DNA of 64,000 nt, taken from the IMG/VR virus record IMGVR_UViG_3300029305_012082, positions 32,001 to 96,000 of that record. The stretch is one strand, 5' to 3'. Source of the DNA: a virus (Duplodnaviria; Caudoviricetes). The notes beneath the pieces are model-generated. The model worked only from the letters and a program-made list of their open reading frames with translations, had not been told where the DNA came from and did no database searches. Below, one piece after another: positions 3,804-43,372 of the stretch; within the stretch, counting starts at the first letter, position 1, and every line of letters begins with the position of its first letter. Made by a program: the position numbers and the translations under genes.

Positions 3804-3825
3804 TAAGGACAATTTCAATGAATAA

Positions 3826-15668: not shown

Positions 15669-15697
15669 ATTTTAACAGTCTTTCTTCTGTGCGTCAA
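15669..15697 (-). promoter_or_regulatory. sigma-A-type promoter of the reverse gene
   Basis: TTGACG-17nt-TAAAAT with TG extension on - strand. Confidence 0.7.
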
Positions 15698-15727
15698 TCC
15701 TCATATGGTACGAACGGTGGTGTTCTT

Positions 15728-18133: not shown

Positions 18134-18141
18134 GTGATAAA

Positions 18142-18786
18142 ATGGCAAAAGCAAAAAGACCAGTAACAGTAGCCGGAATACAATTCGATGCACTTATTAG
18201 TGAAGAAAGATCGTTGACAGCAACTGTACCAACATATTCTGTCGAGTCTGGGTTTTGTGTAAGCGACGCCATCATTCTAGAGCCTGAGACATTGTCTATG
18301 GTGCTATTTCTCACCGATACCCCAGTGACTTGGAGAAGAAACGGTGGGCGTGGAAAGACGGAGAGGATTGTTAGCCAACTCGAAGAACTGTATTATTCTG
18401 CTTATCCTGTAACCATCGTTACTTCGGATAAGACATATACGAACATGGCAATTACAAGCCTTGGACTAAACAAAAGCACAGAGATTGGCTACGCAAGAGA
18501 GATTCCGATTGAATTTCAAAAAATTCGAATAACTACCGCTTCAACGACGACAATCCCTGACTCCTATGGAAAAAGCGGAACAACAGGAGCGCAAGCCGGA
18601 ACAGCAAGCGTTACTACTGAGTCAACTTCGCCCTCGACCGGGGCAAGTACATCCGCAAGAGACACAGAAACAACCGTTTCAGAAAACGGTCAATCTATAG
18701 CAAGAAATATCACACAGATGACCGTTACTGAAACAAAATATCATAATGCACAGGATGTGCTGTGGGAGAAACGGAATGGATTATAG
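18142..18786 (+). CDS. baseplate/tube initiator protein
   Basis: Follows tape measure; FDA...YSVESG..SD pattern. Confidence 0.7.
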   Translation: MAKAKRPVTVAGIQFDALISEERSLTATVPTYSVESGFCVSDAIILEPETLSMVLFLTDTPVTWRRNGGRGKTERIVSQLEELYYSAYPVTIVTSDKTYTNMAITSLGLNKSTEIGYAREIPIEFQKIRITTASTTTIPDSYGKSGTTGAQAGTASVTTESTSPSTGASTSARDTETTVSENGQSIARNITQMTVTETKYHNAQDVLWEKRNGL

Positions 18787-19093
18787 TTTCATCGAAGTTC
18801 CTGATATGAATGATAGCATTTCCCGCATCGTCCTTTCTGGGACACCATACCAGATCCGGTTTACCTACAACGATACCGGAGACTACTGGAAATTTGGGTT
18901 GCTCAACACTCTCGGAGAGCCGATTATTCAAGGAATGAAAATCGTCCCGAGATTCCCGCTAAATATTTTTTACACCGTTGCCAAGATTCCAGCCGGAATA
19001 TTTGGTGTCAGAACAAAACTCGAACGCATTGGTCGCAATGACTTCAAAAACGGAAACGCAAGCTTCATATTTTGCCCTATCGACATTGGGTAA
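18776..19093 (+). CDS. small baseplate protein
   Basis: Gene order; FTYN....W...G.KIVP pattern. Confidence 0.7.
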   Translation: MDYSFIEVPDMNDSISRIVLSGTPYQIRFTYNDTGDYWKFGLLNTLGEPIIQGMKIVPRFPLNIFYTVAKIPAGIFGVRTKLERIGRNDFKNGNASFIFCPIDIG

Positions 19094-19104
19094 AACCTCT
19101 GCTT

Positions 19105-19213
19105 CGGAATTTCCGTGGAATTTCCGTGGAATTTCCCGCGACTTTCCACGGAAATTCCGGCGCAACCGTAACCGTAACCGTAACCGTAACCAATATACCG
19201 TAACTATATATAG
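19105..19213. repeat. iteron-like repeats plus (AACCGT)n microsatellite
   Basis: GGAATTTCC x3 at 11-bp period; perfect 16-bp inverted repeat 19105-19120/19144-19159; AACCGT x4 from 19164; TATATATA. Confidence 0.85.
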
Positions 19214-19291
19214 ATTCTGCGCTAATGCGTGTTTTTTATGAAATTGCAGAATGACCATTGCAATGGTTTGTGATAGATAAGAGGTGAGAGA

Positions 19292-20155
19292 ATGGCAGGT
19301 CTTGAGAATTTTGATCGGCAATATCGTCTGTCTGCCGGCAAGGCCGGGGGCACAGGATTTGAGATCGGCGGAGAAAAGCCTGTTCCGCTGCACATAGATT
19401 TCTCTGTGGAAAGAACCGACCAAGAAACACAGAACACCGCCACTCTCAGCATTTGGAACCTCAATGATGCCCATTTGGCAGCTCTTGAAGAAAAAGACTG
19501 TGTTGTGGCACTTAGAGCAGGATACGGGAACCGTATGCCTCTAATTTTTTCCGGAATCGTAACTCAAGCAGTAACTTCGAATGATGGCGCAGACAGAAAA
19601 ACTGAGCTTGACATAGTAGACAACCTTGTGGAGATCCGAGACACCTATGTAAGCCTCTCGTACAACGGGACTGTCAATTGGAAAACAATTTTTGATGATG
19701 TTTCTTCCCAGATGGGTGTCGCCATCTCCTACTCCTACAATGCCGAGTTTGTCGATATTCCGAATGGATTTAGCTTTGTTGGTATGGCTAGAGACATAAT
19801 GACCAAGGGCTGCGCTTGCTGCGGTCTTGTTTGGAGTCTCCAGAATGGGGTCATGCAAGTGAAAAAGCCCGGGGATGTAATGTCCAAGGAAGTCTATGTT
19901 CTGTCCCCGGAAACTGGACTGCTTGGTATTCCCGCCCGAATCACGGAAGCGTCCGACAAGTCTGACGAAAAAAATACAATCGGCTGGGATGTCGAGTATT
20001 TTATGAACGGCGCAATCAACATAGATGACTATGTTAAGCTTGAGAGCAAAATGGTGACTGGGTATTTCCGCGTCTATTCGTTAAGCATTTCTGGCGATAA
20101 TGTTTCTGGCGACTGGATATGCAAGGCCCGACTGAAAGAGGTGAAGGAATCATGA
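19292..20155 (+). CDS. baseplate hub protein
   Basis: IWNL, LRAGY, WSLQNG and TGLLGIP motifs. Confidence 0.8.
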   Translation: MAGLENFDRQYRLSAGKAGGTGFEIGGEKPVPLHIDFSVERTDQETQNTATLSIWNLNDAHLAALEEKDCVVALRAGYGNRMPLIFSGIVTQAVTSNDGADRKTELDIVDNLVEIRDTYVSLSYNGTVNWKTIFDDVSSQMGVAISYSYNAEFVDIPNGFSFVGMARDIMTKGCACCGLVWSLQNGVMQVKKPGDVMSKEVYVLSPETGLLGIPARITEASDKSDEKNTIGWDVEYFMNGAINIDDYVKLESKMVTGYFRVYSLSISGDNVSGDWICKARLKEVKES

Positions 20156-20748
20156 TGCAGGAGTTTGTCCAAGAGATTACCAACACTGTCAATCAGTCTT
20201 TGAAGGGCGTCCATACAGCAATGCCTGGTACTATCGTCTCATACGATCCCGGAAGCGGAACGGCAACAGTGAAGCCGGCGATGAAGTTCAGGAAGCCAGA
20301 TGGAACAACTATCGACTATCCGCAGATCTCTGGTGTCCCTGTTTCCATTTCTCAGGGATCTGGTGGTCAGGCAACAGTTGCTATCCCCATCAAAGGCGGA
20401 GACGGATGCATGATCGTAGTTTCCGAGCAATCTCTCGATTATTGGATGTATGGACAGGAAACCCCCACTGATCTGCCCTTCGACATGAGCAACGCCATGT
20501 GTATTCCGGGTCTTGCTCCTGCTGCGAATGCTGCCATGCAGAAAGCATGTGCTGAAAACTGCATTGTGATAACGGCCGGAGGAGCAACAACCGTCAAAGT
20601 AAAAGGGGACGAAGTTGAGATCGAAGCTCCTTCCGTCAACATGAAATCGCCACAGGTGAAAATAGAAGGTTCTCTGGAGGTAGGGAGCGGAATGACTGTC
20701 AGTGGTGGGTTGTCTGTAGAGGGAGGCATTGAAGAAACCTTGAAGTGA
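20152..20748 (+). CDS. baseplate spike (Gp138/gpV-like)
   Basis: HTAMPGTIVSYD...VKP, P.KGGD motifs; beta-repeat C-terminus. Confidence 0.82.
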   Translation: MMQEFVQEITNTVNQSLKGVHTAMPGTIVSYDPGSGTATVKPAMKFRKPDGTTIDYPQISGVPVSISQGSGGQATVAIPIKGGDGCMIVVSEQSLDYWMYGQETPTDLPFDMSNAMCIPGLAPAANAAMQKACAENCIVITAGGATTVKVKGDEVEIEAPSVNMKSPQVKIEGSLEVGSGMTVSGGLSVEGGIEETLK

Positions 20749-20887
20749 TCGCCCTACAATTCGCTTCACAGCCGCCCAAATTGCCTCTAACGGGACTTTT
20801 TGGCAGACATCAACTTACAAACAAAGCAAAGAAACTCCGACCTCACAAGACACAGTGGGTTCTCAGCTTATAAACAAAGGGAGGACA

Positions 20888-21244
20888 ATGATGGCCGATA
20901 TTAGGTTGAACAAAGATGGCGATATCGACGTGTCGAAGACAGGTGACATCTACCTCACAAACAGCGTTCGACAGGCGATCCTGATTAAATTGAGATGGAT
21001 TTATGGCGAATGGCGGCTCGGTCCAGAATTAGGTTTCCCTTGGTTTGAACAGGTCTTCATTAAGAACCCGAACACAGATGCGATCAAGGGTTTACTTCGA
21101 GAAAAGATCCTTCAGGTAGAAGGAGTAGATGCGGCGATTGTAACAGAGGTCGAATATAGCCGTGAAAAAAGATCTGCAACCTTCCGCTACACCGTAACGG
21201 TAGGGGAGGAAGTGTTCAAGGAAGAGGTGACGCTTTATGAGTGA
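20888..21244 (+). CDS. baseplate wedge/sheath initiator (gp25-like)
   Basis: RQ...L....GEW.L....G.PW pattern. Confidence 0.78.
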   Translation: MMADIRLNKDGDIDVSKTGDIYLTNSVRQAILIKLRWIYGEWRLGPELGFPWFEQVFIKNPNTDAIKGLLREKILQVEGVDAAIVTEVEYSREKRSATFRYTVTVGEEVFKEEVTLYE

Positions 21245-22679
21245 ATATGGGCTTACACCGAAAGGGCCGAATATCAAAAGACTTGATGAGATCATTGAGT
21301 CCTTGCATAAGAACCTCTCAGAGCGGTGGGGTGTCAATACCCGTCAGAACCCCGAGTCTCTGATAAATCATGTTTTGACAAATGTTGCCGATCAGATCGC
21401 AGAATTGTGGGAGTTTGGAGAGAGTGTTTATTATTCTCAGTATCCTGCCACAGCGGAAGGCATCAATCTGGATAATGCTGCTCAGTACGGCGGCTCCACG
21501 AGAGAGCCGGCGGCGAAATCCTATTACCCCATCCACTGCACAGGCAAAGATGGAACGGTCCTTGCAGCAGGAACGATCATTGCCTCTACCACGAATCCGA
21601 CAACACAGCTGTCTCTTGCCGAGAGCCGGACCATATCGAGATCTGCTTTCAATAAAGCTGCGATAAAAGTGGCATCCCTGCAAACGGGAAATCCGTACAT
21701 AGTAATCATCAACAACAAAGACTACCGGCATACAGCTGGAACCCTCAGTGCTCTTGAAATTCTGAATGGGTTGGCCGAAGAAATGGGCAATGACTTCACC
21801 GTCAGCGTAGATACCGAGAACGAGCTGCTGAATATCGAAGCTGACGCAGGAACAACAAACGACTTGACTCTTTCAGAGAATCTGACCACAGAAACCGTCA
21901 CATCAATCATCACGTTCGGCACTGTCGAAACAGGAAACATTCTGCTTCCGGACGGAGTCATTACGAATATCGTAAAGGCAGATGCCGGCCTCCAAAGCGT
22001 TGTAAATGTCAGCGGCTACATTGCGGGACGAGATGAAGAAAGTGACGCAGAGTTCCGGATGTCATATGCAGATAAGATTTTCAACCGATCCAAGACAATG
22101 CTTGACACCATACGCAGTGCGATTTTGAACAACGTACAAGGCGTCGCTAGTGTTGCTACATACGAGAACGATAGCGACATTACCGACGAATATGGCCGTC
22201 CCCCTCACAGCATCGAAATCGTTGTTGATGGAGGAGACAACTACGAAATTGCACAGCAAATATTCGCAAACAAAGCCGCAGGCATTTCCACACATGGAAA
22301 TGAAGAAGTGACTATAGTAGGTTCCTATGATGAAAATTTCACTATCAAGTTCAGCCGCCCCGAGATTGTCTATGTGTGGTTCCATCTGAAATTGGAGCGA
22401 AATTCTTCTCAGAGCATTCCGGACAATTACGAAGAACTACTGCGATCGGTTGTAACAAAAAATATGGAGAATTTGGACGCAGGAACCGATGTGGTTCCCA
22501 TGCGCTTCATGACCGAACTTTACGATGCTTTCTCAGGCATCAACTACATCGACATTACATTGACAGCAACCTCGAACAAAGAAAAACCGAGCGTGTACAC
22601 AGCTCGAAGCCAAGCAATTACAGCTAGACAGAGAGCCTTCACCAGCGAAGACATGATAACGGTGGATTTCTATGAGTAA
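21237..22679 (+). CDS. baseplate J/Mu gp47-like protein
   Basis: ATAEGINLD, GRDEESDAEFR and PPHSIEIVVDGG motifs. Confidence 0.88.
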   Translation: MSEYGLTPKGPNIKRLDEIIESLHKNLSERWGVNTRQNPESLINHVLTNVADQIAELWEFGESVYYSQYPATAEGINLDNAAQYGGSTREPAAKSYYPIHCTGKDGTVLAAGTIIASTTNPTTQLSLAESRTISRSAFNKAAIKVASLQTGNPYIVIINNKDYRHTAGTLSALEILNGLAEEMGNDFTVSVDTENELLNIEADAGTTNDLTLSENLTTETVTSIITFGTVETGNILLPDGVITNIVKADAGLQSVVNVSGYIAGRDEESDAEFRMSYADKIFNRSKTMLDTIRSAILNNVQGVASVATYENDSDITDEYGRPPHSIEIVVDGGDNYEIAQQIFANKAAGISTHGNEEVTIVGSYDENFTIKFSRPEIVYVWFHLKLERNSSQSIPDNYEELLRSVVTKNMENLDAGTDVVPMRFMTELYDAFSGINYIDITLTATSNKEKPSVYTARSQAITARQRAFTSEDMITVDFYE

Positions 22680-23334
22680 TAGATATGTTGTAAATCTCCA
22701 AAGTGATCTGCTTGAGCAATTTCGAGGAAAGCCGAATATCGAGGCTCTTGTTGAGGTAATTGGCGTTGAACTCCAAGAAGTGTATGATTTTTTCTCTCAA
22801 CTCCTGATCGAGCGAGACATCAAGGTCGCAGTCGGAAAACAGCTGGACGGAATAGGCAGCATTGCAGACATGACCCGCAGCGAGGCGATTGCTCTTGCAA
22901 GAGACGCCAATTACCCCTATACCGATGAAGATGAGATGTATCGAGTATTCCTACTCTACAAAATCTTCGTCAACACGGCAAAGGGGACATATGCCGATGT
23001 TCTAAGATCCATCCACATGTTATGGGAAGGAACACTGACATATGAGGAGGATGCAACAGTTCCTGCGACCATTATCCTGAATTTTGAGCGGTTTAATGGG
23101 CTTGATATTCAGAGACTTCTAAAGGTGCCCATTGTCAAACCTGCAGGCGTTAGAATTCTTTTCCGAGCCACTGGTCGAAAGGATCATTCTTTCTATACTG
23201 CAGGAACAATCACACATAGCAAAAGAATAACCTACACCCAAGAAGAATACGACTTCTCTATCCCTGACATCCTCGTAGACGAAGACCAAAACCTTCTTCT
23301 TGATGAAAATGGTAATATCCTAACCGAAGGCTGA
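22672..23334 (+). CDS. baseplate wedge protein (DUF2612-like)
   Basis: AVGKQLDGIG, DEMYR and KPAGV motifs. Confidence 0.8.
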   Translation: MSNRYVVNLQSDLLEQFRGKPNIEALVEVIGVELQEVYDFFSQLLIERDIKVAVGKQLDGIGSIADMTRSEAIALARDANYPYTDEDEMYRVFLLYKIFVNTAKGTYADVLRSIHMLWEGTLTYEEDATVPATIILNFERFNGLDIQRLLKVPIVKPAGVRILFRATGRKDHSFYTAGTITHSKRITYTQEEYDFSIPDILVDEDQNLLLDENGNILTEG

Positions 23335-23351: not shown

Positions 23352-24413
23352 ATGTCCATATTCGTTGAAACTACCGACAGTGGCATCGGCTTGATGGTTC
23401 AGGCCCTGTTTGGAGACGCCACTATAGAGTTTACAAGGTTTGAATTCGGGAATGGGGACGTCCCCTCTGAACCCGAAAAGATGACCGAACTGGGCAACAA
23501 AATCTTTGAAAGCCCCGTTGTTGGTGAAATTGTTAAAGGCGAAAACTATGTCGATGTAGCAACGAAATTCGACAACAGAAATGTATCGCACGATTTCACT
23601 CTCACGGAAATTGGAGTATTTGCTATCGATGTGGGCACTCAGGAAGAGGTGATGTTTGCTTACATTCATCTCGGCGACCAAGGCGAACCTGTTCTTAGCA
23701 CTGCGGCAAATAAACTGGTTGAGAATGAGATTGTCGTTCGTATCATTATCGACAAAGCCATAAACGTTACTGCTTCGGTTGCATCCACCATGTATGCATA
23801 TCAAAAGGACTTTGATGACCACTTGAAAGACTACGACAATCCGCACAAGGTCACAAAAGCACAAATTGGGCTTGGTGAAGTTCCGAATACGCATCCCAAA
23901 GACACAGAGATTAAATTTACAGAAGCACAGGAAATCGGAAATATAATGTCAGGAGATACGATCGGAACTGTCTTCGGAAAAATTGCGGCTGCAATCAGAG
24001 CTTTGATTGCCCACATCGCAAACAAAAACAACCCGCATCAGATTACGCCCATGTCTATTGGTGCTGCTGGAGAAGGACACTCACACGCAACTTCCGACAT
24101 TAAAACCGGCGTGCTTACTGTTTTGAGAGGTGGCACAGGGAAGAACAACTGGATAGCCAACAGAATTCTTTTCGCTGCTGCAAGCGATGAACTCGGCCAA
24201 ATCAAGAATCCTGACAAAAAGTCTTTCCTCGTCCAAGGATCTAGTGGAGCACCATATTTTGAAGCCATTTCCGAGTTCGCCTTTTTCTCTACAGGAAAAG
24301 AAGCCCCTGATAGTACGAATATCTTGTGGATTGATACAACTCCTACTACCGGCGGACTTAAATACCACAACGGGACAGAATGGACACATGTGCCTGTTGC
24401 ATATGTGCAGTAA
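23352..24413 (+). CDS. tail fibre/collar protein
   Basis: FTR..FGNG and EIGVFA N-terminus; H....NPH.VT repeats; RGGTG. Confidence 0.82.
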   Translation: MSIFVETTDSGIGLMVQALFGDATIEFTRFEFGNGDVPSEPEKMTELGNKIFESPVVGEIVKGENYVDVATKFDNRNVSHDFTLTEIGVFAIDVGTQEEVMFAYIHLGDQGEPVLSTAANKLVENEIVVRIIIDKAINVTASVASTMYAYQKDFDDHLKDYDNPHKVTKAQIGLGEVPNTHPKDTEIKFTEAQEIGNIMSGDTIGTVFGKIAAAIRALIAHIANKNNPHQITPMSIGAAGEGHSHATSDIKTGVLTVLRGGTGKNNWIANRILFAAASDELGQIKNPDKKSFLVQGSSGAPYFEAISEFAFFSTGKEAPDSTNILWIDTTPTTGGLKYHNGTEWTHVPVAYVQ

Positions 24414-24422
24414 GGAGAGAAT

Positions 24423-24752
24423 ATGAAAACGCTTGTATTTGATATTCCGTATGATCTTTCCAGTTTGATAGAAATGCTCGATTATGAAACGGGAGCATTG
24501 AGAGAACTCCTTGCGTATGCAGCCTCCAAAGGGTTAGAGAACACTACTGCATATCAAAAGTGGGAACAGGACTACCACGCCACCTACAAAGAATTCCAGA
24601 TTGCAAAACAAACTCTGCAGAATGATTATCTGCCCCGTGTCGTCGAAGGAACCGTTTTGAACTGGGAGCTGACTTACTCAACCAACTCGATCGAAGTACA
24701 AGTCTGTCAATGCGAGGGGGAGCAGAATGAAGAAGCACGAGTCGTTCTCTGA
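24423..24752 (+). CDS. small accessory protein of the CXXX-repeat modification cassette
   Basis: AAGGAG RBS; overlaps radical SAM start; resemblance to CXXX-system accessory proteins is from recall only. Confidence 0.6.
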   Translation: MKTLVFDIPYDLSSLIEMLDYETGALRELLAYAASKGLENTTAYQKWEQDYHATYKEFQIAKQTLQNDYLPRVVEGTVLNWELTYSTNSIEVQVCQCEGEQNEEARVVL

Positions 24753-26046
24753 TAAGCTTGGACGGATTTATCACCCGATTGATGCCGATGATACCTTCAA
24801 GGTAAACGATTGGAGAGCAAAAACAATCACATTTCAGATCACAGAGGAATGCAACCTGAATTGCTCCTATTGTTATCAGGGAGCGAAATCTCGAAACAGA
24901 ATGAGTTTTGAGACAGCCAAAGAAATTGTAGACACCCTTTTGGCTGCAGACAGCAGGACGAATCAATATATCACATCGGACAAAATCAGCGGTGTTATCT
25001 TGGATTTCATAGGTGGAGAGCCACTGCTCGAAGTAGATTTGATCGATCAAATCATGGACTATTTTCTGGAACAGGCGTTTTTGCTCAATCACCCTCTGGC
25101 GACCAGATATATGATCTGTATATCTTCGAATGGCACCTTGTATTTCACAGAAAGCGTACAGAGATTTCTGGAAAAATGGGAAGGTCGAATCTCTTTTTCT
25201 GTTAGCGTTGATGGGAACAAGGAACTCCATGATTCCTGCAGAGTCTTTCCTGATGGGACTGGAAGTTATGACCTTGCAATTGCTGCAGCCAAAGACTACA
25301 TGAACAAACATGGCTTCATAGGAAGTAAAATGACGATAGCTCCCGGAAATGTCATGCATGTAAGAAGTGCTGTAAACAGCCTGCTTCAGGAAGGGTATGA
25401 CGAGATTTATCTGAACTGCGTTTTCGAAGAAGGGTGGGAGCTTTCTCATGCCCAAATTCTGTACAGACAGCTCAGAGGACTGGCTGACGATTTGTTGGCT
25501 ATGGAAAATCAACCCTATCTGTCCATATTTGACGAACACATCGGACACCCCATGAAGGAATCAGATAACCAAAACTGGTGCGGTGGGTGCGGAAGCATGC
25601 TTGCGGTCAATTGGAAAGGAGAATTCTTTCCTTGCCTCAGATACATGGGATCTAGCCTGAACGGAGCACAAGAGCCGTTCATAATCGGAGACCTTGAGAA
25701 TGGGATTATGAATTTGCAGGAACACCGCGACAGGGTACAGGAACTCTCTGTCATCGACCGGAAGTCTCAAAGCACAGAGGAGTGCTGGAGCTGCCCCATC
25801 GCATCTGGATGTGCATGGTGTTCGGCATATAACTATCAGGTATATGGAACACCGAATAAAAGAGCGACCTTTATTTGCAAAATGCACCAGGCTAGAGTCT
25901 TAGCAAACGCATACTACTGGAACCTGATATACAAAAAAGAAAACATAGGAACACGGTACTTGTTAGATATTCCTGCTGATTGGGCTGTCGAAATAGTTGG
26001 CGAGAACGAATACGCTATGCTCAAATCTTTGGCGGAGGAGGTGTAG
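24727..26046 (+). CDS. radical SAM/SPASM peptide maturase, CXXX-repeat target type
   Basis: CNLNCSYC and FIGGEPLL; SPASM cysteines CGGCG...PC and CWSC.....CAWC...C. Confidence 0.92.
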   Translation: MKKHESFSDKLGRIYHPIDADDTFKVNDWRAKTITFQITEECNLNCSYCYQGAKSRNRMSFETAKEIVDTLLAADSRTNQYITSDKISGVILDFIGGEPLLEVDLIDQIMDYFLEQAFLLNHPLATRYMICISSNGTLYFTESVQRFLEKWEGRISFSVSVDGNKELHDSCRVFPDGTGSYDLAIAAAKDYMNKHGFIGSKMTIAPGNVMHVRSAVNSLLQEGYDEIYLNCVFEEGWELSHAQILYRQLRGLADDLLAMENQPYLSIFDEHIGHPMKESDNQNWCGGCGSMLAVNWKGEFFPCLRYMGSSLNGAQEPFIIGDLENGIMNLQEHRDRVQELSVIDRKSQSTEECWSCPIASGCAWCSAYNYQVYGTPNKRATFICKMHQARVLANAYYWNLIYKKENIGTRYLLDIPADWAVEIVGENEYAMLKSLAEEV

Positions 26047-26049
26047 TAG

Positions 26050-26721
26050 GTGGCATATATCGACCATGAAAGATTTCTTGATCTCAAAAAGCGAGTACGA
26101 GAAGAATGCCTCAAAAGGTGCTACACTGGATCGGTGCTGATGTATGGAAGTCAAGACTTTGACTTTGAAAACCAACCTGCGGAAGGAAATCTGATTCTTG
26201 GGGAGCATTATGAGAAAATTGCAACCCCCCTCGCTGCGATCAATTCTGACCTAGTTCCAGATTTAGATCCCAAACGAATTGTCTCCGAAGAAGAACTCGC
26301 TATGTTGGAGGCGGCAGTAACTACATTTGAGGCAGAGTCGAAAGCAAGGACAACTCCGGGTGAATGCAAATCGTCCTGCACCGGAACCTGTTATACAGAA
26401 TGCTCCGCATCATGTACCGGAAGTTGTGGTGGAAACTGTTCCGGTGGTTGTCTTACAAGCTGCAATGGGTGCGACGGATGTAGTGGCAGCTGCACCAACG
26501 TATGTTCTGGATGCACAAGTACATGCAAAACGCACTGTACTGGAGGATGCAGCGGTTCCTGCAAGGAGACCTGCACTGTTTCTTGTGGATTTAGGGGTTG
26601 CTCCGGAAGCTGTAGAAATCATTGCTACAATGGTTGCGTTTCTTCTTGCGGTGGAGGCTGCTCAACTTGTGGCAGCAACTGTTCGGGCGTTAGTCTAGTA
26701 GGAACGCAAAGCAGTCATTAA
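26050..26721 (+). CDS. Cys-rich CXXX-repeat protein, probable radical SAM substrate
   Basis: ~105-aa N-domain, then 28 Cys mostly spaced CXXX; 3 nt after the maturase stop. Confidence 0.88.
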   Translation: MAYIDHERFLDLKKRVREECLKRCYTGSVLMYGSQDFDFENQPAEGNLILGEHYEKIATPLAAINSDLVPDLDPKRIVSEEELAMLEAAVTTFEAESKARTTPGECKSSCTGTCYTECSASCTGSCGGNCSGGCLTSCNGCDGCSGSCTNVCSGCTSTCKTHCTGGCSGSCKETCTVSCGFRGCSGSCRNHCYNGCVSSCGGGCSTCGSNCSGVSLVGTQSSH

Positions 26722-26732
26722 GAGGTGACAAC

Positions 26733-27281
26733 ATGAATATTGCATCAAAGTTTGATATAGCTGCCTTGAACCTTTTCGTGGCAGCAAGTGAGGGAACTGT
26801 TTCTACGGAACATAGAATGGAAATTTTCGAAAGCGTTGCTGGCGATCTTGACCTTATGGTCGAGGCCCTTAATGCGTTGATCGTCGGACACAATGCTAGA
26901 GTGTACTCTGGAACGCTTTCTGCGGAGAAGGCTTTTAAGTCCATTAAAGCAGAATACAAAGCAATTGGTTTTGGAGAAATTGTTCCTTTCGATTGCATGG
27001 AAGGTCCTCTTGAGATGCTTTATTATAGAAAAAGCTCAGATGAAATAGATATGGACCACATGTTCGAGATCATCCAGAAGATGTTCCAAAAAAATGAAAC
27101 CTGTCCCAACGAGAGAATTAAGTGTGGCGTATATCAGCTTGCGCTGAGAACAATTACGCACTACAACCTCGTAGCAAAGGACATAAGTTTCTCCAGACAA
27201 GTCATCGATAAAGTAAATTCCTACACACAGGAACAAAAAGATTCCGCTCTTTTGCCCCCTGCCATTGTGACAGAACTGTAG
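26733..27281 (+). CDS. hypothetical protein, possibly part of the radical SAM cassette
   Basis: GAGGTG RBS; tight spacing. Confidence 0.7.
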   Translation: MNIASKFDIAALNLFVAASEGTVSTEHRMEIFESVAGDLDLMVEALNALIVGHNARVYSGTLSAEKAFKSIKAEYKAIGFGEIVPFDCMEGPLEMLYYRKSSDEIDMDHMFEIIQKMFQKNETCPNERIKCGVYQLALRTITHYNLVAKDISFSRQVIDKVNSYTQEQKDSALLPPAIVTEL

Positions 27282-27291: not shown

Positions 27292-27615
27292 ATGGCTATT
27301 GAAAAAATCACAGATAAGCCGGTGGCTGCATCGGCTGAATTGGCAGATCATATTTTGATCGTCATAGACGGAAAGCTCCGAAGGGCTACTGTTGAAACAC
27401 TGGCGGATATTTTGGTGGAAGGGCATATAGTCAAAATCAACGCTGATGTTACTTCTGCCGTCAATGAAGCGACAGAGCTTGCTGATAGAATTAGAACATC
27501 GCTGGATAACGGGGAATTCAACGGAACGCCCGGTGCTGCAGGAATTTATATCGGCAAGGACGAACCGACAGATCCTCACCATCCCGTATGGCTGTACTAT
27601 GATCCCGAAGCATGA
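27292..27615 (+). CDS. tail-associated hypothetical protein
   Basis: AGGAGG RBS; GEFNG...EPTD..VW motifs. Confidence 0.7.
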   Translation: MAIEKITDKPVAASAELADHILIVIDGKLRRATVETLADILVEGHIVKINADVTSAVNEATELADRIRTSLDNGEFNGTPGAAGIYIGKDEPTDPHHPVWLYYDPEA

Positions 27616-27656
27616 TTTGCAAGGATTAGAGAATCCCAAATAAAGGAGTACGGAAC

Positions 27657-28616
27657 ATGGATAAACAGTATGCGAGAAAAAGATCTCCCGTTACAATCGG
27701 AAGGCATGGCGAAAACAAAGCAAGGCAGATTCTGTTCGATATCTCGCGCTGGAAAAAGCTCTACGGGTCTGGAACCGTAGCTCTTTTGCACAGGAGATGT
27801 GGAGACATCGAAGCATATCCTTGTCTCATCGAAATTGACGGAAACTTTGTTGTCTGGACGATCATGGAATCTGACCTTGCCAAAGTTGGACAAGGTCAAT
27901 GCGAACTCCAGTATCTTAAAGGCGAAACGGTCGTCAAATCTGAGGTCTGGGTCACAAAAGTAAATAAATCCCTCACACACTGCGGAAACAGCTGCGATAA
28001 CCCCCAAGACAGCTGGGTGACAAAAGTATTGCAGGCAGGTGCAGCTGTCCTTGAGGCGCAAATGCACCCTCCGATGATTGGAGACAACGGGAACTGGTTG
28101 GTTTGGTCATCCGAGGAAAGCGCATACAAGGACACAGGAATTTCTGCCGGCGGATACAACGATGCAGATAAACTGGATGTAGATCAAGGCGTAGAAAATT
28201 TCGGGAAAGCCATGGTGGTCGGACCAGACGGGCGATTGGTTCCGGCTTATGTGTCTCCCGTCATTTCTGAAGAGCCTCCGGACGATCTTAATGTCGGGGC
28301 ATACATCGACCCGAGAGAGGATTATGAGGAAGAAGAAGGTGTCCCTGTCGCTTCTGGTGGAAGCGTCAGATACGACAACCCTCAAAATCTATCCGAAGAT
28401 CAGAAAAGACAAGCCAGAGAGAATATCGGAGCTTTTGCCTCAAGCCAAGGCGAAGAAAACGCCGAAAAACTCCTGTTTGTAGACAAGAACGGCATTGTCT
28501 CTGTACTAGCCATTGGAGCAGGGCTTGCGATAGTAGGAGGAAAGCTTACTCTTGCAACGCTCGCTACAACAACAGCCATACTGGGCACAGCGAAGCTCGG
28601 AGAAATGATCCTTTAG
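27657..28616 (+). CDS. BppU-like tail/fibre adaptor protein
   Basis: GENKARQILFD N-terminus; IGDNGNW...DTG and QNLSEDQKRQARENIG motifs. Confidence 0.65.
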   Translation: MDKQYARKRSPVTIGRHGENKARQILFDISRWKKLYGSGTVALLHRRCGDIEAYPCLIEIDGNFVVWTIMESDLAKVGQGQCELQYLKGETVVKSEVWVTKVNKSLTHCGNSCDNPQDSWVTKVLQAGAAVLEAQMHPPMIGDNGNWLVWSSEESAYKDTGISAGGYNDADKLDVDQGVENFGKAMVVGPDGRLVPAYVSPVISEEPPDDLNVGAYIDPREDYEEEEGVPVASGGSVRYDNPQNLSEDQKRQARENIGAFASSQGEENAEKLLFVDKNGIVSVLAIGAGLAIVGGKLTLATLATTTAILGTAKLGEMIL

Positions 28617-28630
28617 GAAGGAGGATTTAC

Positions 28631-29131
28631 ATGAGCTACAAAAAACATATTTTTGCAGACGGGCATATACTAAAAGCCGAACATCTCAATGCCATGGAAG
28701 ATCAGATCGCCCAGAACGAATCCAACAATGGCAACTTGGCTGACCTTTCCACAGACTCCAAATCATCCACTGTTTCGGCGATCAATGAACTTAATTCAAA
28801 AAAGGCAAATGCACCAACCAAGGCAGCGGTTGGACAGATACTTGTCGTAAAATCGGTCGACTCAGAAGGACATCCAACAGAGTTTGAGACTATCGCACTT
28901 CCTCAATGTGATTTTGGAGAAGAAGCAAAGATACTGTTGGTGGATATTCTTGGAAGCGCAAAATTTGAATCAGACCAAACATCCAACATTTCTGCTCTGG
29001 CAGAGGCGTTGGGTGTTGTTTTTTCACCTGAGCTTCCTGAAGAAAATGGCGTAGAAAAGGTCGACGAGACGCTGGTTATCACTGACAATGTCGACGCAGT
29101 ACAAGATGGAAACACACTGGTAATATCTTGA
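28631..29131 (+). CDS. tail fibre-associated protein
   Basis: LKAEHLNAMEDQI and SAINEL motifs. Confidence 0.65.
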   Translation: MSYKKHIFADGHILKAEHLNAMEDQIAQNESNNGNLADLSTDSKSSTVSAINELNSKKANAPTKAAVGQILVVKSVDSEGHPTEFETIALPQCDFGEEAKILLVDILGSAKFESDQTSNISALAEALGVVFSPELPEENGVEKVDETLVITDNVDAVQDGNTLVIS

Positions 29132-29144
29132 GAGGAGTGAATTT

Positions 29145-30554
29145 ATGAGCAAAGACGTATTGATCGGCGAACAGACGTATTCAGGAATAACAGACGTGCA
29201 GCTTAAAACCACAACTGGTCAAGCCGCCACGTTCAAAGATGTTGACGAGATCGTCACACCGAGCGGTGAAAAGGAAATCACAGCAAACGGCACATACGAT
29301 ATCACGGGATATGCCAGCGTGGTCGTAAATATTCCGACGGAGGGTGAAGCAATGACGATTAACACAGAAGCAAGCACAACATTTGAACTTGCAAATGGCA
29401 CCGAATTCAGACGGGGAGAGGTAGCGGAACTTGTTCTTACAATCCCCGAGGAACTCCCCACAGCTTTTAGCTGTCAAGTTGCATTTACAAGTGGTGAAAA
29501 CGCAACTAGCATTACAATGCCCACAGATGTCGTAATGCAAGGCGAATCTGTGTCCAATGGAGTTTTCACACCCAAGGCCCATTATCGATATGGTCTCATG
29601 TTCTGGTACGACGGCGAAATCGTGTGGTGTGTCATTTGTGCCGCAGCTCTGGAAGGAGCAGAAGACAATCCTGACGAAGGCGGCAGCGGAGATAATACCG
29701 GAGATGACACCGGCGATACTGGAAATACCGGAGGTTCTGGATCTGGCGGCGAAGATGATAACACCGAGATGACTGGTAGCGGAACGGAGTCTGATCCGTA
29801 CATGATTGCAACTGCAGCACAGTTCGTTGCACTTGGAGAAGAAGTTGATGCCGGCGATACGAAGAGTGGAGTTTATTACGCCGTTGCAAACGACCTCGAT
29901 TTGGATGGCATCGAATGGAACCCCATTGGCGCAAACTATAAGAATACCAACAGTGACACCGACAATAGCGGTAGCTTTGCCGGTACGATTGATGGTCGTG
30001 GTCACGTCATCCGCAATATCAGCATAAACGGCATGCAGTATGCAGGTCTGTTTGGCTCGAACTTTGCCGGTACAGTAATGAACCTTGGACTTGAAGGTGG
30101 CTCCATCAGCACGACTTATGCAAGTTCCACTTGCGGTGCCATTGCACGCAAGGGTTCCGGCAAGATCGTAAATTGCTACGCACGAGTTCCCGGTCAAGCT
30201 GTTACTCGTTCGTCCGGTATCATTGATGAGATCGAAGCTGGCGGCATGGTCCTTGGCTGTTACCAAGCTGCAGCTATCAACAACGGAAATGGCTATGCGA
30301 TCAAGTCTGCTACTACAACAACCGGAACAATTAAGTATTGCCTGTGGGATAGCACATTGACAGAAAAGGGTATTGCCGGGACTTCTTCTTCTGATTCCAA
30401 CAATAACGGTATTACAACCGCAGAGTTTGCAACAGCTCATACAACCCTCAATAATAATCTTTCCGCTGTTGCTGCTGCGGCCGGAATCGATGTTGCCAAG
30501 CTGTGTGCTTGGGAGGCTGGTTCTGACGGTTATCCCAGACTGGTGGTGGCGTGA
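29145..30554 (+). CDS. tail-associated protein with GLUG/M26-like beta-helix region
   Basis: GSGTESDPYMI, WNPIG, FAGTIDGRGHVI and GLFG motifs. Confidence 0.7.
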   Translation: MSKDVLIGEQTYSGITDVQLKTTTGQAATFKDVDEIVTPSGEKEITANGTYDITGYASVVVNIPTEGEAMTINTEASTTFELANGTEFRRGEVAELVLTIPEELPTAFSCQVAFTSGENATSITMPTDVVMQGESVSNGVFTPKAHYRYGLMFWYDGEIVWCVICAAALEGAEDNPDEGGSGDNTGDDTGDTGNTGGSGSGGEDDNTEMTGSGTESDPYMIATAAQFVALGEEVDAGDTKSGVYYAVANDLDLDGIEWNPIGANYKNTNSDTDNSGSFAGTIDGRGHVIRNISINGMQYAGLFGSNFAGTVMNLGLEGGSISTTYASSTCGAIARKGSGKIVNCYARVPGQAVTRSSGIIDEIEAGGMVLGCYQAAAINNGNGYAIKSATTTTGTIKYCLWDSTLTEKGIAGTSSSDSNNNGITTAEFATAHTTLNNNLSAVAAAAGIDVAKLCAWEAGSDGYPRLVVA

Positions 30555-31486
30555 TGAGTCTTACGATGAGACGATTTGCTGCAATTGCTCAACTATCGTC
30601 AGGTAGTGCAGTTGCGCCTGTTCTTCGGTACAAGCTCGGAATTATATCGGACTCTCACTCTGGATACACAAATGCAGTTCCGCATTTAACGGCAACCTTG
30701 AATACGCTTCATAATCGTGGGGCGCAAGAAATCGTCACTTGCGGAGATAGTGCTGTAAATGGTACTCAGGCAGAATGGGAGCAGTATATCAGCACAATCG
30801 AATCGTCCCCGTACAAGAGAACTCAAGTTCATGAGTGCAATGGCAACCACGATGGTGCCGCCCCCGATCTGACCACGTTTAAGCAGTATTCAAACAATGG
30901 AGCTTTGGTGGGAAAAGATCCGTACTTTGCGATCGACCTGTTTGGAGATCGTTTCATTTTCTTGGCTTTCGATGTTGGAACGTCTCCCAGCGGTGGAAAC
31001 TGCTTCTCAACAGCACAGCTTGATTGGCTTGAAGAAGAGCTTCAGGAGCACTACGGCAAAGGGAAGAATGTGTGGATCATTGAACACTCTCTTTTCTATG
31101 GTTGGGGTGCTGGTGATATTATTTCCGCCCCTAGATACCCAAGAGCCTTGTCCCTTTCCTTTGATAGCCATATCCGCCTGAAATCCATTTTGGAAGCACA
31201 TCCCAAGCTTATCTTCCTCCACGGACATACGCATATTAGGCTTGAAGATGTTTCCGAAGGACTCGTTGCCCATGCACTTCCTGCGGATGCCGGATGCAAT
31301 CAGATTCACGTCCCTGCTGTTACCGCAGGTAAGTTTATTGGAGGCAGCGGCGAACCCTCGGCGGATTTTAGTATGGACCCGGAATGCTGGTACTGCGAAG
31401 TTTACACAAACAAGATTGTTTTCATCGGTCTTAACGGCAATACTGGTGAAGAAATAGCAAACGTTTCTCATACTATTGCAGTCTAA
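30551..31486 (+). CDS. calcineurin-like metallophosphoesterase
   Basis: SDSH, CGD, GNHD, H and HGHTH motifs. Confidence 0.88.
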   Translation: MMSLTMRRFAAIAQLSSGSAVAPVLRYKLGIISDSHSGYTNAVPHLTATLNTLHNRGAQEIVTCGDSAVNGTQAEWEQYISTIESSPYKRTQVHECNGNHDGAAPDLTTFKQYSNNGALVGKDPYFAIDLFGDRFIFLAFDVGTSPSGGNCFSTAQLDWLEEELQEHYGKGKNVWIIEHSLFYGWGAGDIISAPRYPRALSLSFDSHIRLKSILEAHPKLIFLHGHTHIRLEDVSEGLVAHALPADAGCNQIHVPAVTAGKFIGGSGEPSADFSMDPECWYCEVYTNKIVFIGLNGNTGEEIANVSHTIAV

Positions 31487-31512
31487 GAGAAGCGAAGAGT
31501 TGAGGTGTGAAA

Positions 31513-33399
31513 ATGGCAAGATATTACGTTCGAAATCCCGACAATCCTCAGGAGTGGCTGCTTGTAGGTGGTAACGCCAAAGGGGCTGTCCTGTACAACA
31601 GACCTCAAACTCTTAGCGAAGAAGCAAAGAGCGTTGCAAGAGACAATATTGGCTCAGCTTCCAAGGCAATCGTCGGCGATCTTAAAAAACTCAACACTTC
31701 GTCAAAGAACGATTTGGTCGAAGCCATAAACGAAATTCTCAGACTTGTTGGAACAGGAGTCGGAGGAACTGTTGATCCGGAACAGATCGAAAGAATTGTC
31801 GAGGATTATTTAGAAAATAATCCGCCCGAAGATGGTCAGGATGGTATTTCTGCAACGCATAGTTGGGAAGGTACTGTCCTGACCATGACAAGTGCAAGCG
31901 GCACATCGAAGGTAGATCTTCAAGGCCCCAAAGGGGATGACGGAATATCACCGCACATCTACCTCGAACAGATCGATGGCGGACATAGAATCACCATTGA
32001 AGATGCTTTCGAAAGAAAAGAGTTTGTCATCAAGAACGGTTCTGACGGGCGAGATGGTGATAATGGCGCAACGCCAGAACTCAAAATTGGCACCGTTACG
32101 ACTGTATCCTACGGGGGTGAGGCAAAAGCAACAATAACGGGAACGGCAGATAAGCCGGTTCTCAACCTATGGCTTCCTTCTGGTCCCGCTGGATCTTCTT
32201 CCGAAGGGGATGACGGAAGAGAAGTTGTCCTTCGTGCTTACGGTGGTTATATCCAATGGCAATATGTTGGTGATACCACTTGGGAAAACATTGTCGCATT
32301 GTCTGAAATATCCGGAGACGATGGTGTAGGCATCGAAAGTGTAGAGCAGACTACTACCTCTGATGAAGACGGTGGCACAAACAAAATTGTACTGAGACTG
32401 TCCGATGGGTCTGAAACTGAAATATCAATAAAGAACGGCTCTGCAGGAACACCGGGCAGAACTCCGGTTAAAGGCGAAGACTACTTTACCGATACAGAAA
32501 AGCAAGAGATTGCCGAAGAAGCATCAAAGCTTGTAACCATCGATCAAGTTCTCCCCACACAAGTCGTTTTCCCCGAAGGACAGACAACGAACTTTGCCAT
32601 CGGCAAGGTAAAACTGTCGAATGGTAGCGCAGAGCTTATTCCTGTAGGAGGAACACTGCAGGACTTCTTCGACAAATTGGTTGAAGAAAAGAACCCCTCT
32701 ACAACTCAGCCGAAAGTAACGCTTACGTTCGATCAGGCAAAGGCTTATGAAGTTGGAACAAAAGTCACTCCTACCTATAAAGCCACCCTCAGCGCAGGTT
32801 CATACACATACGGACCCGCTACAGGAGTTGTAGCATCTGCATGGGAAGTCACTGACACCCAAAACGCTAAAAGAACAACAGCCAGCGGTAGCTTTGATGA
32901 AATCCAAATAGTTGATGATATAAGCTATAAGATTACAGCAAAAGCAACTCACAACGCAGGTGCTGTTCCTGTAACAAACCAGAAGAACCCTTATGCCGCC
33001 GGCCAGATTAAATCCGGAACAAAAAGTGCTACCTCTGGAGCGATGACAGGATATCGAAACGTCTTCTATGGAACAAGAACAGATAAGACAGATCTCACAT
33101 CTGATAAGATCCGCGCTCTCTCTGGAAAATCCGGAAAGGCTCTATCAAATGGAAGCACATTTGTGGTTGATGTTCCTGTTGGAGCCTTGCGTGTTGTTAT
33201 AGCATATCCGGCCACCCTTCAGGATATTTCTTCTGTAAAAGACGTGAACGGCATGAATGCTGAAATTGCTTCAGGTTTCTCGATGATTACACTTGATGTT
33301 TATGGAGTTGATGGATACAAAGCCATTCCGTACAAAGTGTATATCATGGACTTTGCATCCGCAAATGACACGGCAAACACCCTTGCTGTAACAATCTAA
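31513..33399 (+). CDS. tail fibre-like protein with collagen-like linkers
   Basis: GPKGDDG, KNG.DG and TPVKGEDYFT modules. Confidence 0.7.
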   Translation: MARYYVRNPDNPQEWLLVGGNAKGAVLYNRPQTLSEEAKSVARDNIGSASKAIVGDLKKLNTSSKNDLVEAINEILRLVGTGVGGTVDPEQIERIVEDYLENNPPEDGQDGISATHSWEGTVLTMTSASGTSKVDLQGPKGDDGISPHIYLEQIDGGHRITIEDAFERKEFVIKNGSDGRDGDNGATPELKIGTVTTVSYGGEAKATITGTADKPVLNLWLPSGPAGSSSEGDDGREVVLRAYGGYIQWQYVGDTTWENIVALSEISGDDGVGIESVEQTTTSDEDGGTNKIVLRLSDGSETEISIKNGSAGTPGRTPVKGEDYFTDTEKQEIAEEASKLVTIDQVLPTQVVFPEGQTTNFAIGKVKLSNGSAELIPVGGTLQDFFDKLVEEKNPSTTQPKVTLTFDQAKAYEVGTKVTPTYKATLSAGSYTYGPATGVVASAWEVTDTQNAKRTTASGSFDEIQIVDDISYKITAKATHNAGAVPVTNQKNPYAAGQIKSGTKSATSGAMTGYRNVFYGTRTDKTDLTSDKIRALSGKSGKALSNGSTFVVDVPVGALRVVIAYPATLQDISSVKDVNGMNAEIASGFSMITLDVYGVDGYKAIPYKVYIMDFASANDTANTLAVTI

Positions 33400-33411
33400 G
33401 GAGGTGGGGAC

Positions 33412-34965: not shown

Positions 34966-34979
34966 TAGGAGTGTGAATC

Positions 34980-35867
34980 ATGAGCATTGCACAACGAATA
35001 AGCACTATTCAAACAGACAGAAACACAATCCGAGCCAAGCTGGTTGAACTCGGTCTGGCAACGAACACAGACAAGCTGACTGCTCTTGCGGCTGCGATCG
35101 AAGATATCGTCAATCAAGGTGCAGTATCTGTCGAGATCAAAGAGGGTACAATCTATACGATTCCGGCTGGTTTCCACAACGGCTCTGGTGTCGTAAAAGC
35201 TATTTCCGACGCAGCCGGCGACGCAGAGACCTACAAGACTCAGGCAAAGGTTGTAACCCCCACAAAGAAACAACAGAGTGTAACGCCCGATGTCGGCTAC
35301 TATGCTCTGGAATCTGTCACTGTCTATCCCATTCCTGACGCATATCAAGATGTTACCAGCGTTACCGCAACGGCAGAAGACACACTTACCGGAAAAATCT
35401 TTGTTGCAGCGGATGGTACTGTTGTAACAGGTACTATGCCCAACAATGGCACTGTAGATAAGATCCTCGACTGTACGACTCTTACCTACACAATCCCGAA
35501 GGGCATGCACAGCGGCACTGGTAAGATCCAGATCATTGTAGAAACAAAAACTGTAACTCCCACCAAGGCCGTACAGGAAATCACTCCTACAGATGGAAAG
35601 GTACTTTCCAAGGTTACAGTTGCGGCTATTCCCGATGCATATCAGGACGTCACTCCCGTTGATGCCACAGCGGCAGATGTGGTTGTTGGAAAGACTATCG
35701 TTGCCGCCGATGGCACCGTGATTGAAGGGGGAATTCCCGTCAATGGCGACGTATCCAGAACAATCGATGGCCTGACAACAACCAGTGTAGAAATTCCTGC
35801 AGGAAGCACTACTGGAGGAACCGTGAGTCTCACAGACGATATTGAAGAAGCTCTTGCGGCTATCTGA
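34980..35867 (+). CDS. tail fibre-like protein with internal duplication
   Basis: TPTK..Q..TP...VTV..IPDAYQDVT occurs twice. Confidence 0.7.
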   Translation: MSIAQRISTIQTDRNTIRAKLVELGLATNTDKLTALAAAIEDIVNQGAVSVEIKEGTIYTIPAGFHNGSGVVKAISDAAGDAETYKTQAKVVTPTKKQQSVTPDVGYYALESVTVYPIPDAYQDVTSVTATAEDTLTGKIFVAADGTVVTGTMPNNGTVDKILDCTTLTYTIPKGMHSGTGKIQIIVETKTVTPTKAVQEITPTDGKVLSKVTVAAIPDAYQDVTPVDATAADVVVGKTIVAADGTVIEGGIPVNGDVSRTIDGLTTTSVEIPAGSTTGGTVSLTDDIEEALAAI

Positions 35868-43137: not shown

Positions 43138-43372
43138 AGGTATCGTCTACCGGATCAGGACGACCTACGGAGGCTTCCTGGTGGAGGTTCCCAACGAGGG
43201 CGATACGATAGGCGAGCTCGCCCGGTACTGCGCTAACCTCAGCATGAGCGGTTACATCATTTCGTCCGTAACGAGAGTGCTCGATGCGGACACCGCAACG
43301 CCGAGAGTTTCTGTCCTGACCACAAAGGAATATCGGGACGAAATCAAACGGCTGACCAAGAAGGAGAATTGA
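43118..43372 (+). CDS. hypothetical protein
   Basis: AAGGAG then TTG start. Confidence 0.6.
   Translation: MKAKRIEGIVYRIRTTYGGFLVEVPNEGDTIGELARYCANLSMSGYIISSVTRVLDADTATPRVSVLTTKEYRDEIKRLTKKEN

Follow-up and report, generated by a model that had tools for sequence, protein, structure and literature searches.

What is a peptide maturase doing among the tail-fibre genes of a phage, and what does it modify there? The question is raised by a provirus of 104,687 bp in IMG/VR (record IMGVR_UViG_3300029305_012082), of which we analysed bases 32001–96000; this whole stretch of 64,000 nt is called the window below, and coordinates refer to it unless another record is named. At 24423..27281 of its + strand a cassette of four genes stands directly 3′ of a tail-fibre gene. 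The genes encode a 109-aa helper (ACC), a radical SAM/SPASM maturase, a protein ending in a long tract of regularly spaced cysteines (the ladder) and a 182-aa protein (P182). An initial annotation, made from the sequence alone, had described four coupled open reading frames (ORFs) directly after the fibre gene; all of them were recovered at the same positions, with products of 109, 439, 223 and 182 aa.

We propose that the cassette is a phage CXXX-repeat radical SAM system, whose substrate would be a two-domain protein encoded in the tail-fibre module and not a small peptide for export. Weighing the sequence evidence, we give this reading a probability of about 0.55.

The maturase and its family

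The maturase gene (24727..26046, +; 439 aa) encodes the second of the three core components of the cassette. Its product matches TIGR04115, the enzyme family of the CXXX-repeat system, with 465.6 bits (cut-off 350; E = 1.4e-139) over model positions 1–359 of 359; a six-frame search of the provirus record gave 466 bits with the same model. The radical SAM motif CX3CX2C is present at C42/C46/C49, and eight cysteines are found in the C-terminal SPASM region (positions 285, 288, 303, 353, 356, 362, 365 and 384), in agreement with the radical SAM enzyme with SPASM cysteines that had been annotated. By its profile match the enzyme is a genuine radical SAM/SPASM maturase of the CXXX-repeat family. 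It also matches phrog_1802 (224 bits) and, in Pfam, Radical_SAM (38.7 bits) and SPASM (21.1 bits, just below the cut-off of 21.5). When contigs were scanned with the enzyme alignment, all matches were distant SPASM enzymes of 25–37% identity.

The CXXX-repeat system is already known as a set of curated families (in NCBIfam the enzyme TIGR04115, the targets TIGR04114 and TIGR04117, TIGR04116 and TIGR04119; in Pfam PF27846), defined purely bioinformatically and as a peptide system. By the curated cut-off the window enzyme belongs to this system; the window locus also resembles the system in having a cysteine at every fourth residue of the target and a helper of about 100 aa adjoining the enzyme. 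It differs in that the target is a 223-aa two-domain protein encoded in a tail-fibre module, that helper and ladder are below the family thresholds and that TIGR04119 has no match in the record. TIGR04114–04116 had been named in the initial annotation for such systems; TIGR04115 proved right for the enzyme, but the window ACC did not match TIGR04116 (cut-off 50 bits) even at E up to 10, and the best of four repeat matches of the ladder to TIGR04114 reached 15.9 bits against a cut-off of 20, with the protein scan returning no match. In the whole provirus record neither TIGR04116 nor TIGR04119 (a 210-position domain) was matched, again at E up to 10. Five to six of 16 relatives match TIGR04114 or TIGR04117, and PF27846.1 is precomputed on a 99%-identical cluster representative of the window protein; the window ladder itself has a weak match to phrog_6085.

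The ladder protein

The third gene of the cassette (26050..26721, +; GTG start) encodes a protein of 223 aa with 30 cysteines. Twenty-eight of these are in the ladder (residues 106–211; 26365..26682, +), the other two are at residues 20 and 24 of the N-domain (residues 1–99; 26050..26346, +), a predicted helical part that matched no Pfam, NCBIfam or PHROG family. The initial annotation of an N-terminal domain followed by a 28-Cys CXXX tract thus describes the protein well. Out of 27 spacings in the tract, 22 are of 4 residues, four of 3 and one of 5; the tract is rich in Cys, Ser, Gly and Thr, and its final cysteine is 12 residues before the stop codon. The N-terminus of the protein is hydrophilic and has no signal peptide. 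No other Cys-ladder ORF is present in the window.

AlphaFold2 predicts helices at residues 6–22, 51–64 and 80–95 of the N-domain (pLDDT about 80–90) and a disordered ladder (pLDDT below 50); the predicted disorder is as expected for an unmodified repeat. Four residues of the N-domain, K13, R23, D38 and P43, are invariant across 16 diverse relatives. A profile search of the PDB with the N-domain gave nothing significant; several TssK/IglD helical domains that matched in a VIA-wide fold search (Z 3.8–5.4) are regarded as a common helical arrangement. An exact-sequence contig look-up of the ladder protein returned no record, and a word-based homologue search with the N-domain matched only the window's own cluster.

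An exhaustive search of 1.84 billion representatives with the N-domain profile revealed a large family: 539 representative clusters, of which 308 have E values of 1e-10 or lower. Of these 539 clusters the 150 best were inspected, and nearly all have the N-domain at the extreme N-terminus of the protein. When N-domain representatives of 125 aa or more are considered, a ladder is present in 92 out of 109 (median start at residue 108; median 22 cysteines, maximum 68), which usually ends 4–10 residues before the C-terminus; most of the representatives without ladder are frameshifted translations. Over all relatives the ladder has from 17 to more than 100 cysteines and target proteins reach 834 aa. 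The family-wide composition of ladders is 24% Cys, 20% Gly, 15% Ser, 11% Thr and 5.4% Asp+Glu, with 76% of spacings being of four residues and 20% of three. Conservation of sequence in the ladder is limited to its first three repeats, which form an entry motif, [ST]-[DSG]-C-x3-C-[TS]-G-[LM]-C (G in 93%, L/M in 84%); the window ladder opens with the form C-x3-C-[TS]-G-[LMT]-C. This entry motif is a candidate recognition site.

We also observed ORFs consisting of a ladder only. In loci of the L004–L038 type (e.g. L004, 6168–6314) such an ORF, of 48 aa with 10 cysteines, lies between the N-domain/ladder gene and the ACC gene. The group comprises about 30 closely related loci, a single lineage at 70% enzyme identity; its 48-aa product is a possible second, leaderless substrate.

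Conservation of the cassette

A pattern scan of IMG/VR, made with the enzyme alignment and two peptide patterns, found at least 127 relatives of the enzyme; 80 loci were kept, and the counts below are over 84 loci. With enzymes grouped at 70% identity, the 84 loci fall into 21 lineages. A same-strand Cys-ladder ORF is present within about 4 kb of the enzyme gene in 81 of the 84 loci. According to iterated profile hidden Markov models (HMMs), 80 loci have a member of the ACC family, 74 have the N-domain and only 11 have P182. The conserved core therefore consists of three genes, those of ACC, the enzyme and the N-domain/ladder protein. Of the four-gene unit initially annotated these three do occur together, in about 80 of the 84 loci, while P182 does not belong. 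We consider it very probable that the ladder is the substrate of the enzyme.

The core is arranged in two ways: fibre, N-domain/ladder protein, a protein of 170–200 aa, ACC, enzyme; or, as in the window, fibre, ACC, enzyme, N-domain/ladder protein, P182. Homologues of P182 occur in the second order in every case, sometimes in two copies. That P182 could be the 170–200-aa protein of the other gene order was not borne out by BLAST and hhalign (probability below 4%); as it is present in 11 loci only and has no detectable homology to the 170–200-aa proteins, P182 is a lineage-specific accessory outside the core. P182 (26733..27281, +) matched no Pfam, NCBIfam or PHROG family, PHROG scans of its family members gave no match, and a PDB profile search with it returned nothing significant.

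A related locus is found in MT835573, an unannotated phage contig from human faeces. Its enzyme is 39% identical to that of the window, and its genes follow in the order fibre, ladder protein, 202-aa protein, small protein and enzyme, then fibre-like genes. Megablast of 12 kb of the window against GenBank phages gave no match.

Link to tail and fibre genes

The initial annotation had read the cassette as RiPP-type chemistry turned to the modification of a virion protein, such as a cross-linked or metal-loaded fibre tip, an interpretation that would be refuted if homologous cassettes had no link to tail genes. Our analysis supports this interpretation in part. The link to tail genes turned out to be strong: no fewer than 17 of the 21 lineages have the cassette 3′ of baseplate or fibre genes, and this holds for either gene order and for phages with myovirus-type as well as siphovirus-type tails.

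In the window the gene directly 5′ of the cassette (23352..24413, +) encodes a 353-aa tail-fibre protein (phrog_7037, tail fiber, 1.1e-23), with the tip motif 'ILWIDT..GGLKYHNGTEWTHVPVAY' in its last ~35 residues (24306–24404). Proteins of 94–843 aa that are encoded upstream of the cassette in at least 29 loci, in either gene order, end in "..LLWIDT..GGLKY(Y/H)NGxxWVxVP.."; this C-terminal tip is the sole part that the upstream fibres, otherwise unrelated, have in common. Locus types without the tip motif have baseplate-wedge, tail or tail-fibre PHROG matches directly upstream. In one locus (L003, 6241–6831) the 196-aa protein preceding the ladder gene has 'LWxDT..KYYxxxxxW' twice, at residues 48–104 and 147–194, thus the tip motif behaves as a short repeat unit.

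The architecture of some ladder proteins points in the same direction. In a siphovirus (L128) the tape measure, Dit and Tal genes and an unannotated gene of 650 aa are followed by the gene of a 522-aa protein with N-domain, ladder and C-terminal domain, then by ACC, enzyme, five small unannotated genes and holin; the 522-aa protein occupies the slot of the receptor-binding protein. Proteins of 834 aa (L039, 3703–6207) and 816 aa (L058, 2580–5030) begin with a ladder of ~40 cysteines, without N-domain, and continue with two ALK/LTK-type glycine-rich domains (PF12810, E about 1e-90); ACC and enzyme genes adjoin, as they do in two loci sampled via the N-domain (L125 and L126). Among proteins from the N-domain search, P0024 and P0037 combine jelly-roll-like fibre modules (recognized by eye from sequence motifs) with N-domain and ladder, P0050 has its ladder between the N-domain and a 190-aa C-terminal globular domain, and P0132 joins the N-domain to a different, fibre-like C-terminus.

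An alternative reading is a late protein that is not incorporated into the virion. Fibre genes are commonly followed by genes of dedicated assembly chaperones, and small, fast-evolving genes (P182, the 170–200-aa proteins) accompany the cassette, as chaperones do; the ladder protein could accordingly be a fibre assembly factor or chaperone, a counter-defence protein, or a redox or metal buffer acting inside the infected cell. We find this unlikely: the wide range of ladder lengths together with fusions of receptor-binding type would better fit an exposed, diversifying structural element, and the L128 protein stands where a receptor-binding protein is expected. With tail location, tip motif and fusions considered, the ladder protein is probably part of the virion or attached to the fibre.

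Export genes and cellular relatives

Could the cassette instead make a ribosomally produced peptide with post-translational modifications (RiPP), such as a bacteriocin, that the phage carries as a moron or for lysogenic conversion? The N-domain would then be a leader and the ladder a core peptide, released by lysis or through proteases and exporters of the host, and acting on competing bacteria or on the animal host. The enzyme family is defined as one of peptide maturases, and its nearest relatives make RiPPs. Long leaders have precedent among RiPPs (the NHLP and Nif11 types), and ladder-only ORFs of 48–195 aa occur in some loci. The sole cellular relative found also belongs to this side of the account. 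In 399 genomes of Clostridia species we detected one TIGR04115 member above cut-off (L122, G134:C8:3000-22900), an enzyme of 728 aa that is extended at its C-terminus; its neighbours are ABC transporters, a second radical SAM enzyme and a Nol-like carbamoyltransferase, and neither a Cys-ladder ORF nor ACC was found nearby. This single case is a classical biosynthetic-cluster context.

The provirus looks different. A classical RiPP cluster has a leader peptidase and/or an exporter; in the whole 104,687-bp provirus there was no match to the ABC transporter domain PF00005 or to the C39 peptidase PF03412, and the neighbours of the cassette are tail proteins. The absence of transporter and protease had been noted in the initial annotation, as had the lack of a promoter or terminator of the cassette's own: between 18 and 36 kb promoter-like and terminator-like sites are no commoner than in shuffled sequence, and none is located between the cassette genes. 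The GC content of the cassette, 0.45–0.46, equals that of its neighbours. By these measures the cassette does not look like a moron. In addition, the position after fibre or baseplate genes is kept across the lineages and both tail types; ladders are fused to large fibre-type domains or lie inside multi-domain proteins; and the N-domain is conserved, is predicted to be folded and occurs also with a fibre-like C-terminus in place of the ladder. An exported RiPP is on this evidence quite improbable, and a modified protein of the tail-fibre module remains our preferred reading.

Chemistry of the ladder

The next-best families for the enzyme after TIGR04115 are PapB (171 bits), CcpM, QhpD and the SCIFF maturase, all scoring far below their own cut-offs; enzymes of all four families form thioethers. 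The nearest solved structure, found by PDB profile search, is that of the SCIFF maturase CteB (5WGG, 9.2e-21), a sactionine synthase that forms thioethers on a Cys-rich substrate; the match spans the radical SAM, bridging and SPASM regions. By analogy with PapB, CcpM, QhpD and SCIFF/CteB, we lean towards thioethers as the chemistry of the ladder, with slightly better than even confidence.

Two characterized systems are instructive here. In freyrasin, tandem short Cys repeats are each closed to a small thioether ring by one radical SAM/SPASM enzyme. The enzyme is PapB, whose thioether macrocyclization is documented (PMC12373016). The window enzyme does not belong to its family of ranthipeptide maturases (171.2 bits versus the NF047865 cut-off of 340); PapB requires an Asp or Glu acceptor (CX3D), which most of the ladder repeats do not offer, and freyrasin is a small leader-core peptide.

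QhpD (TIGR03906) matches the window enzyme with 112 bits, far below the cut-off of 453. It is a radical SAM/SPASM enzyme that makes intramolecular Cys thioethers in QhpC, a structural subunit that is retained and not exported. We regard QhpD/QhpC as the best precedent for what would be enzymatic stapling of a structural protein. Unlike the ladder protein, QhpC has 3–4 cross-links, made to Asp or Glu, no repeat ladder, and is a subunit of a periplasmic enzyme.

An alternative keeps the location of the protein and changes its chemistry. A tract with 24% Cys, a filler of Gly, Ser and Thr and few acidic acceptors (one Asp and three Glu in the 111 residues of the window ladder) could be a scaffold for metal, Fe-S clusters or disulfides, metallothionein-like or β-solenoid-like. 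The radical SAM enzyme would then catalyse an oxidation of the Cys-to-formylglycine type, epimerization or C–C links, or would modify the entry motif only. SPASM enzymes do include anSME-type oxidases, the model of which matches the window enzyme weakly (57.7 bits), and only the first three repeats are conserved in sequence. On the other hand, the four best-scoring characterized relatives all form thioethers, the closest structure is a sactionine synthase, and as a dedicated enzyme accompanies ladders whatever their length, it is suggested that the enzyme acts on the repeats themselves. We see little likelihood of such other chemistry, and continue with a thioether-linked ladder in the tail-fibre module.

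The ACC helper

ACC (24423..24752, +; 109 aa) is the first component of the core. In eight loci it is fused in frame, through a short linker, to the N-terminus of the radical SAM enzyme. The ESM Atlas contains a cluster of 313 members, 88% of them viral, of "CXXX-repeat maturases" of 578 aa, the N-terminus of which superposes on ACC; the Atlas clusters of the enzyme fusion, ACC and N-domain are 82–100% viral.

These fusions put ACC where CteB-type enzymes carry their N-terminal domain. CteB carries there a RiPP recognition element (RRE), a PqqD-like winged helix for binding of the leader, which lies within its residues 1–96. The match to the window enzyme sets in at residue 97 of CteB, and residues 1–96 therefore have no equivalent in the window enzyme; in their place the phage systems have ACC, separate or fused and of a different predicted topology. 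In the AlphaFold2 model of ACC (pLDDT 89.7) a strand is combined with a long helical hairpin and a hairpin of two strands.

ACC matched no Pfam, NCBIfam or PHROG family. Three of 26 ACC relatives match TIGR04116 weakly (best E 0.0034); with the likeness in size and position, a remote relationship to that family is possible. Searches with ACC by Foldseek against the PDB (E up to 0.001) and by PDB profiles returned nothing significant, and a VIA-wide fold search gave helical-hairpin matches only (Z at most 8.1); there was no RRE entry among the fold matches.

Among proteins retrieved with the N-domain profile, P0011 (334 aa) contains N-domain, ladder and an ACC-like C-terminal part in one polypeptide; it is either a true fusion or a product of read-through or misassembly.

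Proposed mechanism

The following sequence of events would account for these observations. The cassette would be co-transcribed late with the fibre genes. In the anaerobic cytoplasm of the host ACC would work together with the radical SAM/SPASM enzyme, replacing the N-terminal recognition domain of related maturases. Seven metagenome runs from animal faeces contain the stretch, each with at least half of its sampled words, which is consistent with an anaerobic host in which a radical SAM enzyme can work; there was no RNA run among the sequencing runs matching the stretch. Starting at the entry motif, the enzyme would process the C-terminal ladder, most likely introducing many small intramolecular thioethers, one per repeat, with acceptors that would not be mainly Asp or Glu. 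The flexible tract of Cys, Gly, Ser and Thr could thereby turn into a redox-inert, protease-resistant rod or knot, and the thioethers would protect the tract of 28 cysteines from oxidation after release of the particle from the gut anaerobe.

The N-domain, rather than being cleaved as a leader, would be retained and would attach the product to the tail apparatus; we infer that it docks on the tip of the preceding fibre, with the conserved 'LLWIDT..KYxNGxxW' element being the most plausible site. The ladder would then be a distal appendage serving stability or contact with the host. As the same kit is located beside fibre genes in many unrelated phages, enzymatic cross-linking of a tail appendage is probable for these phages. 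In its complete form the proposal is that a large and mostly uncultured group of gut phages, of both tail types, makes part of its host-recognition apparatus as an enzyme-made polythioether ladder rod, docked through the N-domain and built with ACC as a new, non-RRE kind of partner by which SPASM enzymes recognize their substrate; we hold it tentatively, at somewhat less than even odds.

Several observations weigh against this interpretation. The raw locus counts overstate independence, since many of the loci are from related phages. The GenBank phage set contains no cultured phage with N-domain or ACC. In some loci the ladder protein lacks an N-domain, and ladder-only peptides of 48–195 aa are among these cases; the N-domain is therefore not a universal recognition element, and some of the ladders could be free peptides. 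A VIA-wide fold search with the ladder protein gave weak helical matches only (Z at most 5.8), and ACC, for which we infer the role of a substrate adaptor from its position and enzyme fusion only, has a predicted topology that is not that of a winged-helix RRE, and has no significant structural or sequence relative. Finally, with Asp+Glu at just 5.4% family-wide, Cys-to-Asp chemistry of the PapB type cannot be the main reaction.

Implications

To our knowledge, cross-linking by radical SAM/SPASM enzymes has been described for small secreted peptides and for a single enzyme subunit (QhpC), and a full-text literature search brought up no publication on a CXXX-repeat radical SAM system of phages or tail fibres. 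If the proposal is true, this chemistry would extend to virus particles, with the ladder protein as the first known case of a virion structural protein modified by a radical SAM enzyme. Phages of anaerobes would chemically staple a tail appendage before release, which would account for the survival of a Cys-rich element outside the cell, where it meets oxygen, proteases and bile, and the ladder would represent a new class of receptor-binding or stabilizing element in phage biology.

The family is large (539 N-domain representative clusters and at least 127 enzyme relatives in IMG/VR), and its module of three genes is compact and directly testable by co-expression. Natural substrates with up to about 100 modification sites per chain could be of interest for peptide and protein engineering. 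There is also a likely annotation pitfall: genome-mining tools may call such prophage cassettes ranthipeptide clusters.

Cysteine-repeat proteins of SPN3US-like phages

Proteins with a short N-terminal part followed by (CXXX)n are present also in SPN3US-like jumbo phages, encoded between gp167/gp168, candidates for virion or fibre proteins, and the radical SAM genes gp163/gp164. This is a distant analogue: the enzymes share 23% identity with that of the window, the proteins start with parts that are not related to the N-domain, and a homologue of ACC is absent.

In SPN3US (JN641803; L124) three Cys-repeat ORFs, of 130, 134 and 68 aa, are located at 3395–3787, 3798–4202 and 4218–4424, between gp167 and gp165, upstream of two radical SAM genes. 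Two of the Cys-repeat ORFs are unannotated, and the annotated gp166 (3871–4206) is an off-frame call that overlaps the 134-aa ladder ORF; SEGD1 has the same problem of off-frame annotation with gp169 and gp170. Because these ORFs are un- or mis-annotated in JN641803, the published SPN3US virion proteome says nothing about them either way. The 7-kDa virion protein gp172 of SPN3US (PMC5694885) was considered as a possible ladder product and is not one of these ORFs.

Genes around the cassette

Nearly all large ORFs of the window are on the + strand. Upstream of the fibre gene, at 15689..23334 (+), are the genes of a myovirus-type tail, identified by PHROG matches: tape measure (phrog_1535), baseplate hub (phrog_196, 2.7e-67), baseplate wedge (phrog_120 and phrog_6, 6.6e-41) and a further baseplate protein. 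Downstream, at 27292..35867 (+), is a series of fibre-like late genes encoding proteins of 107, 319, 166, 469, 311, 630, 517 and 295 aa; hence the cassette is located inside the fibre module and not at its end. The 166-aa and 630-aa proteins have weak to moderate tail or tail-fibre PHROG matches; phrog_13589 matches the 295-aa protein and also a 171-aa protein preceding the ladder gene in another locus (L055). The 311-aa product (30551–31486) is a calcineurin-like metallophosphoesterase (PF12850, 28.6 bits) encoded among these fibre-like genes.

The spacings between the fibre, ACC, enzyme, ladder and P182 genes are +9, −26 (an overlap), +3 and +11 nt, and a GGAG-type Shine-Dalgarno sequence precedes each start within the cassette. 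A frameshift fusing ACC to the enzyme across the 26-nt overlap was considered and rejected; since the ATG of the enzyme gene has its Shine-Dalgarno sequence and the overlap has no obvious slippery site, we assume ordinary translational coupling of the two genes.

Two minor features were seen elsewhere in the sequence. Within the P182 gene there is a weak terminator-like hairpin (26915–26932; 7 pairs followed by TTTTAAGT), not above the regional chance level. A reading frame at 43369–44319 contains the pattern 'HQCWLW/HQGWLW' over a long distance and with strict periodicity; it suggests a tandem-repeat coding region, probably that of a repeat protein read off-frame.

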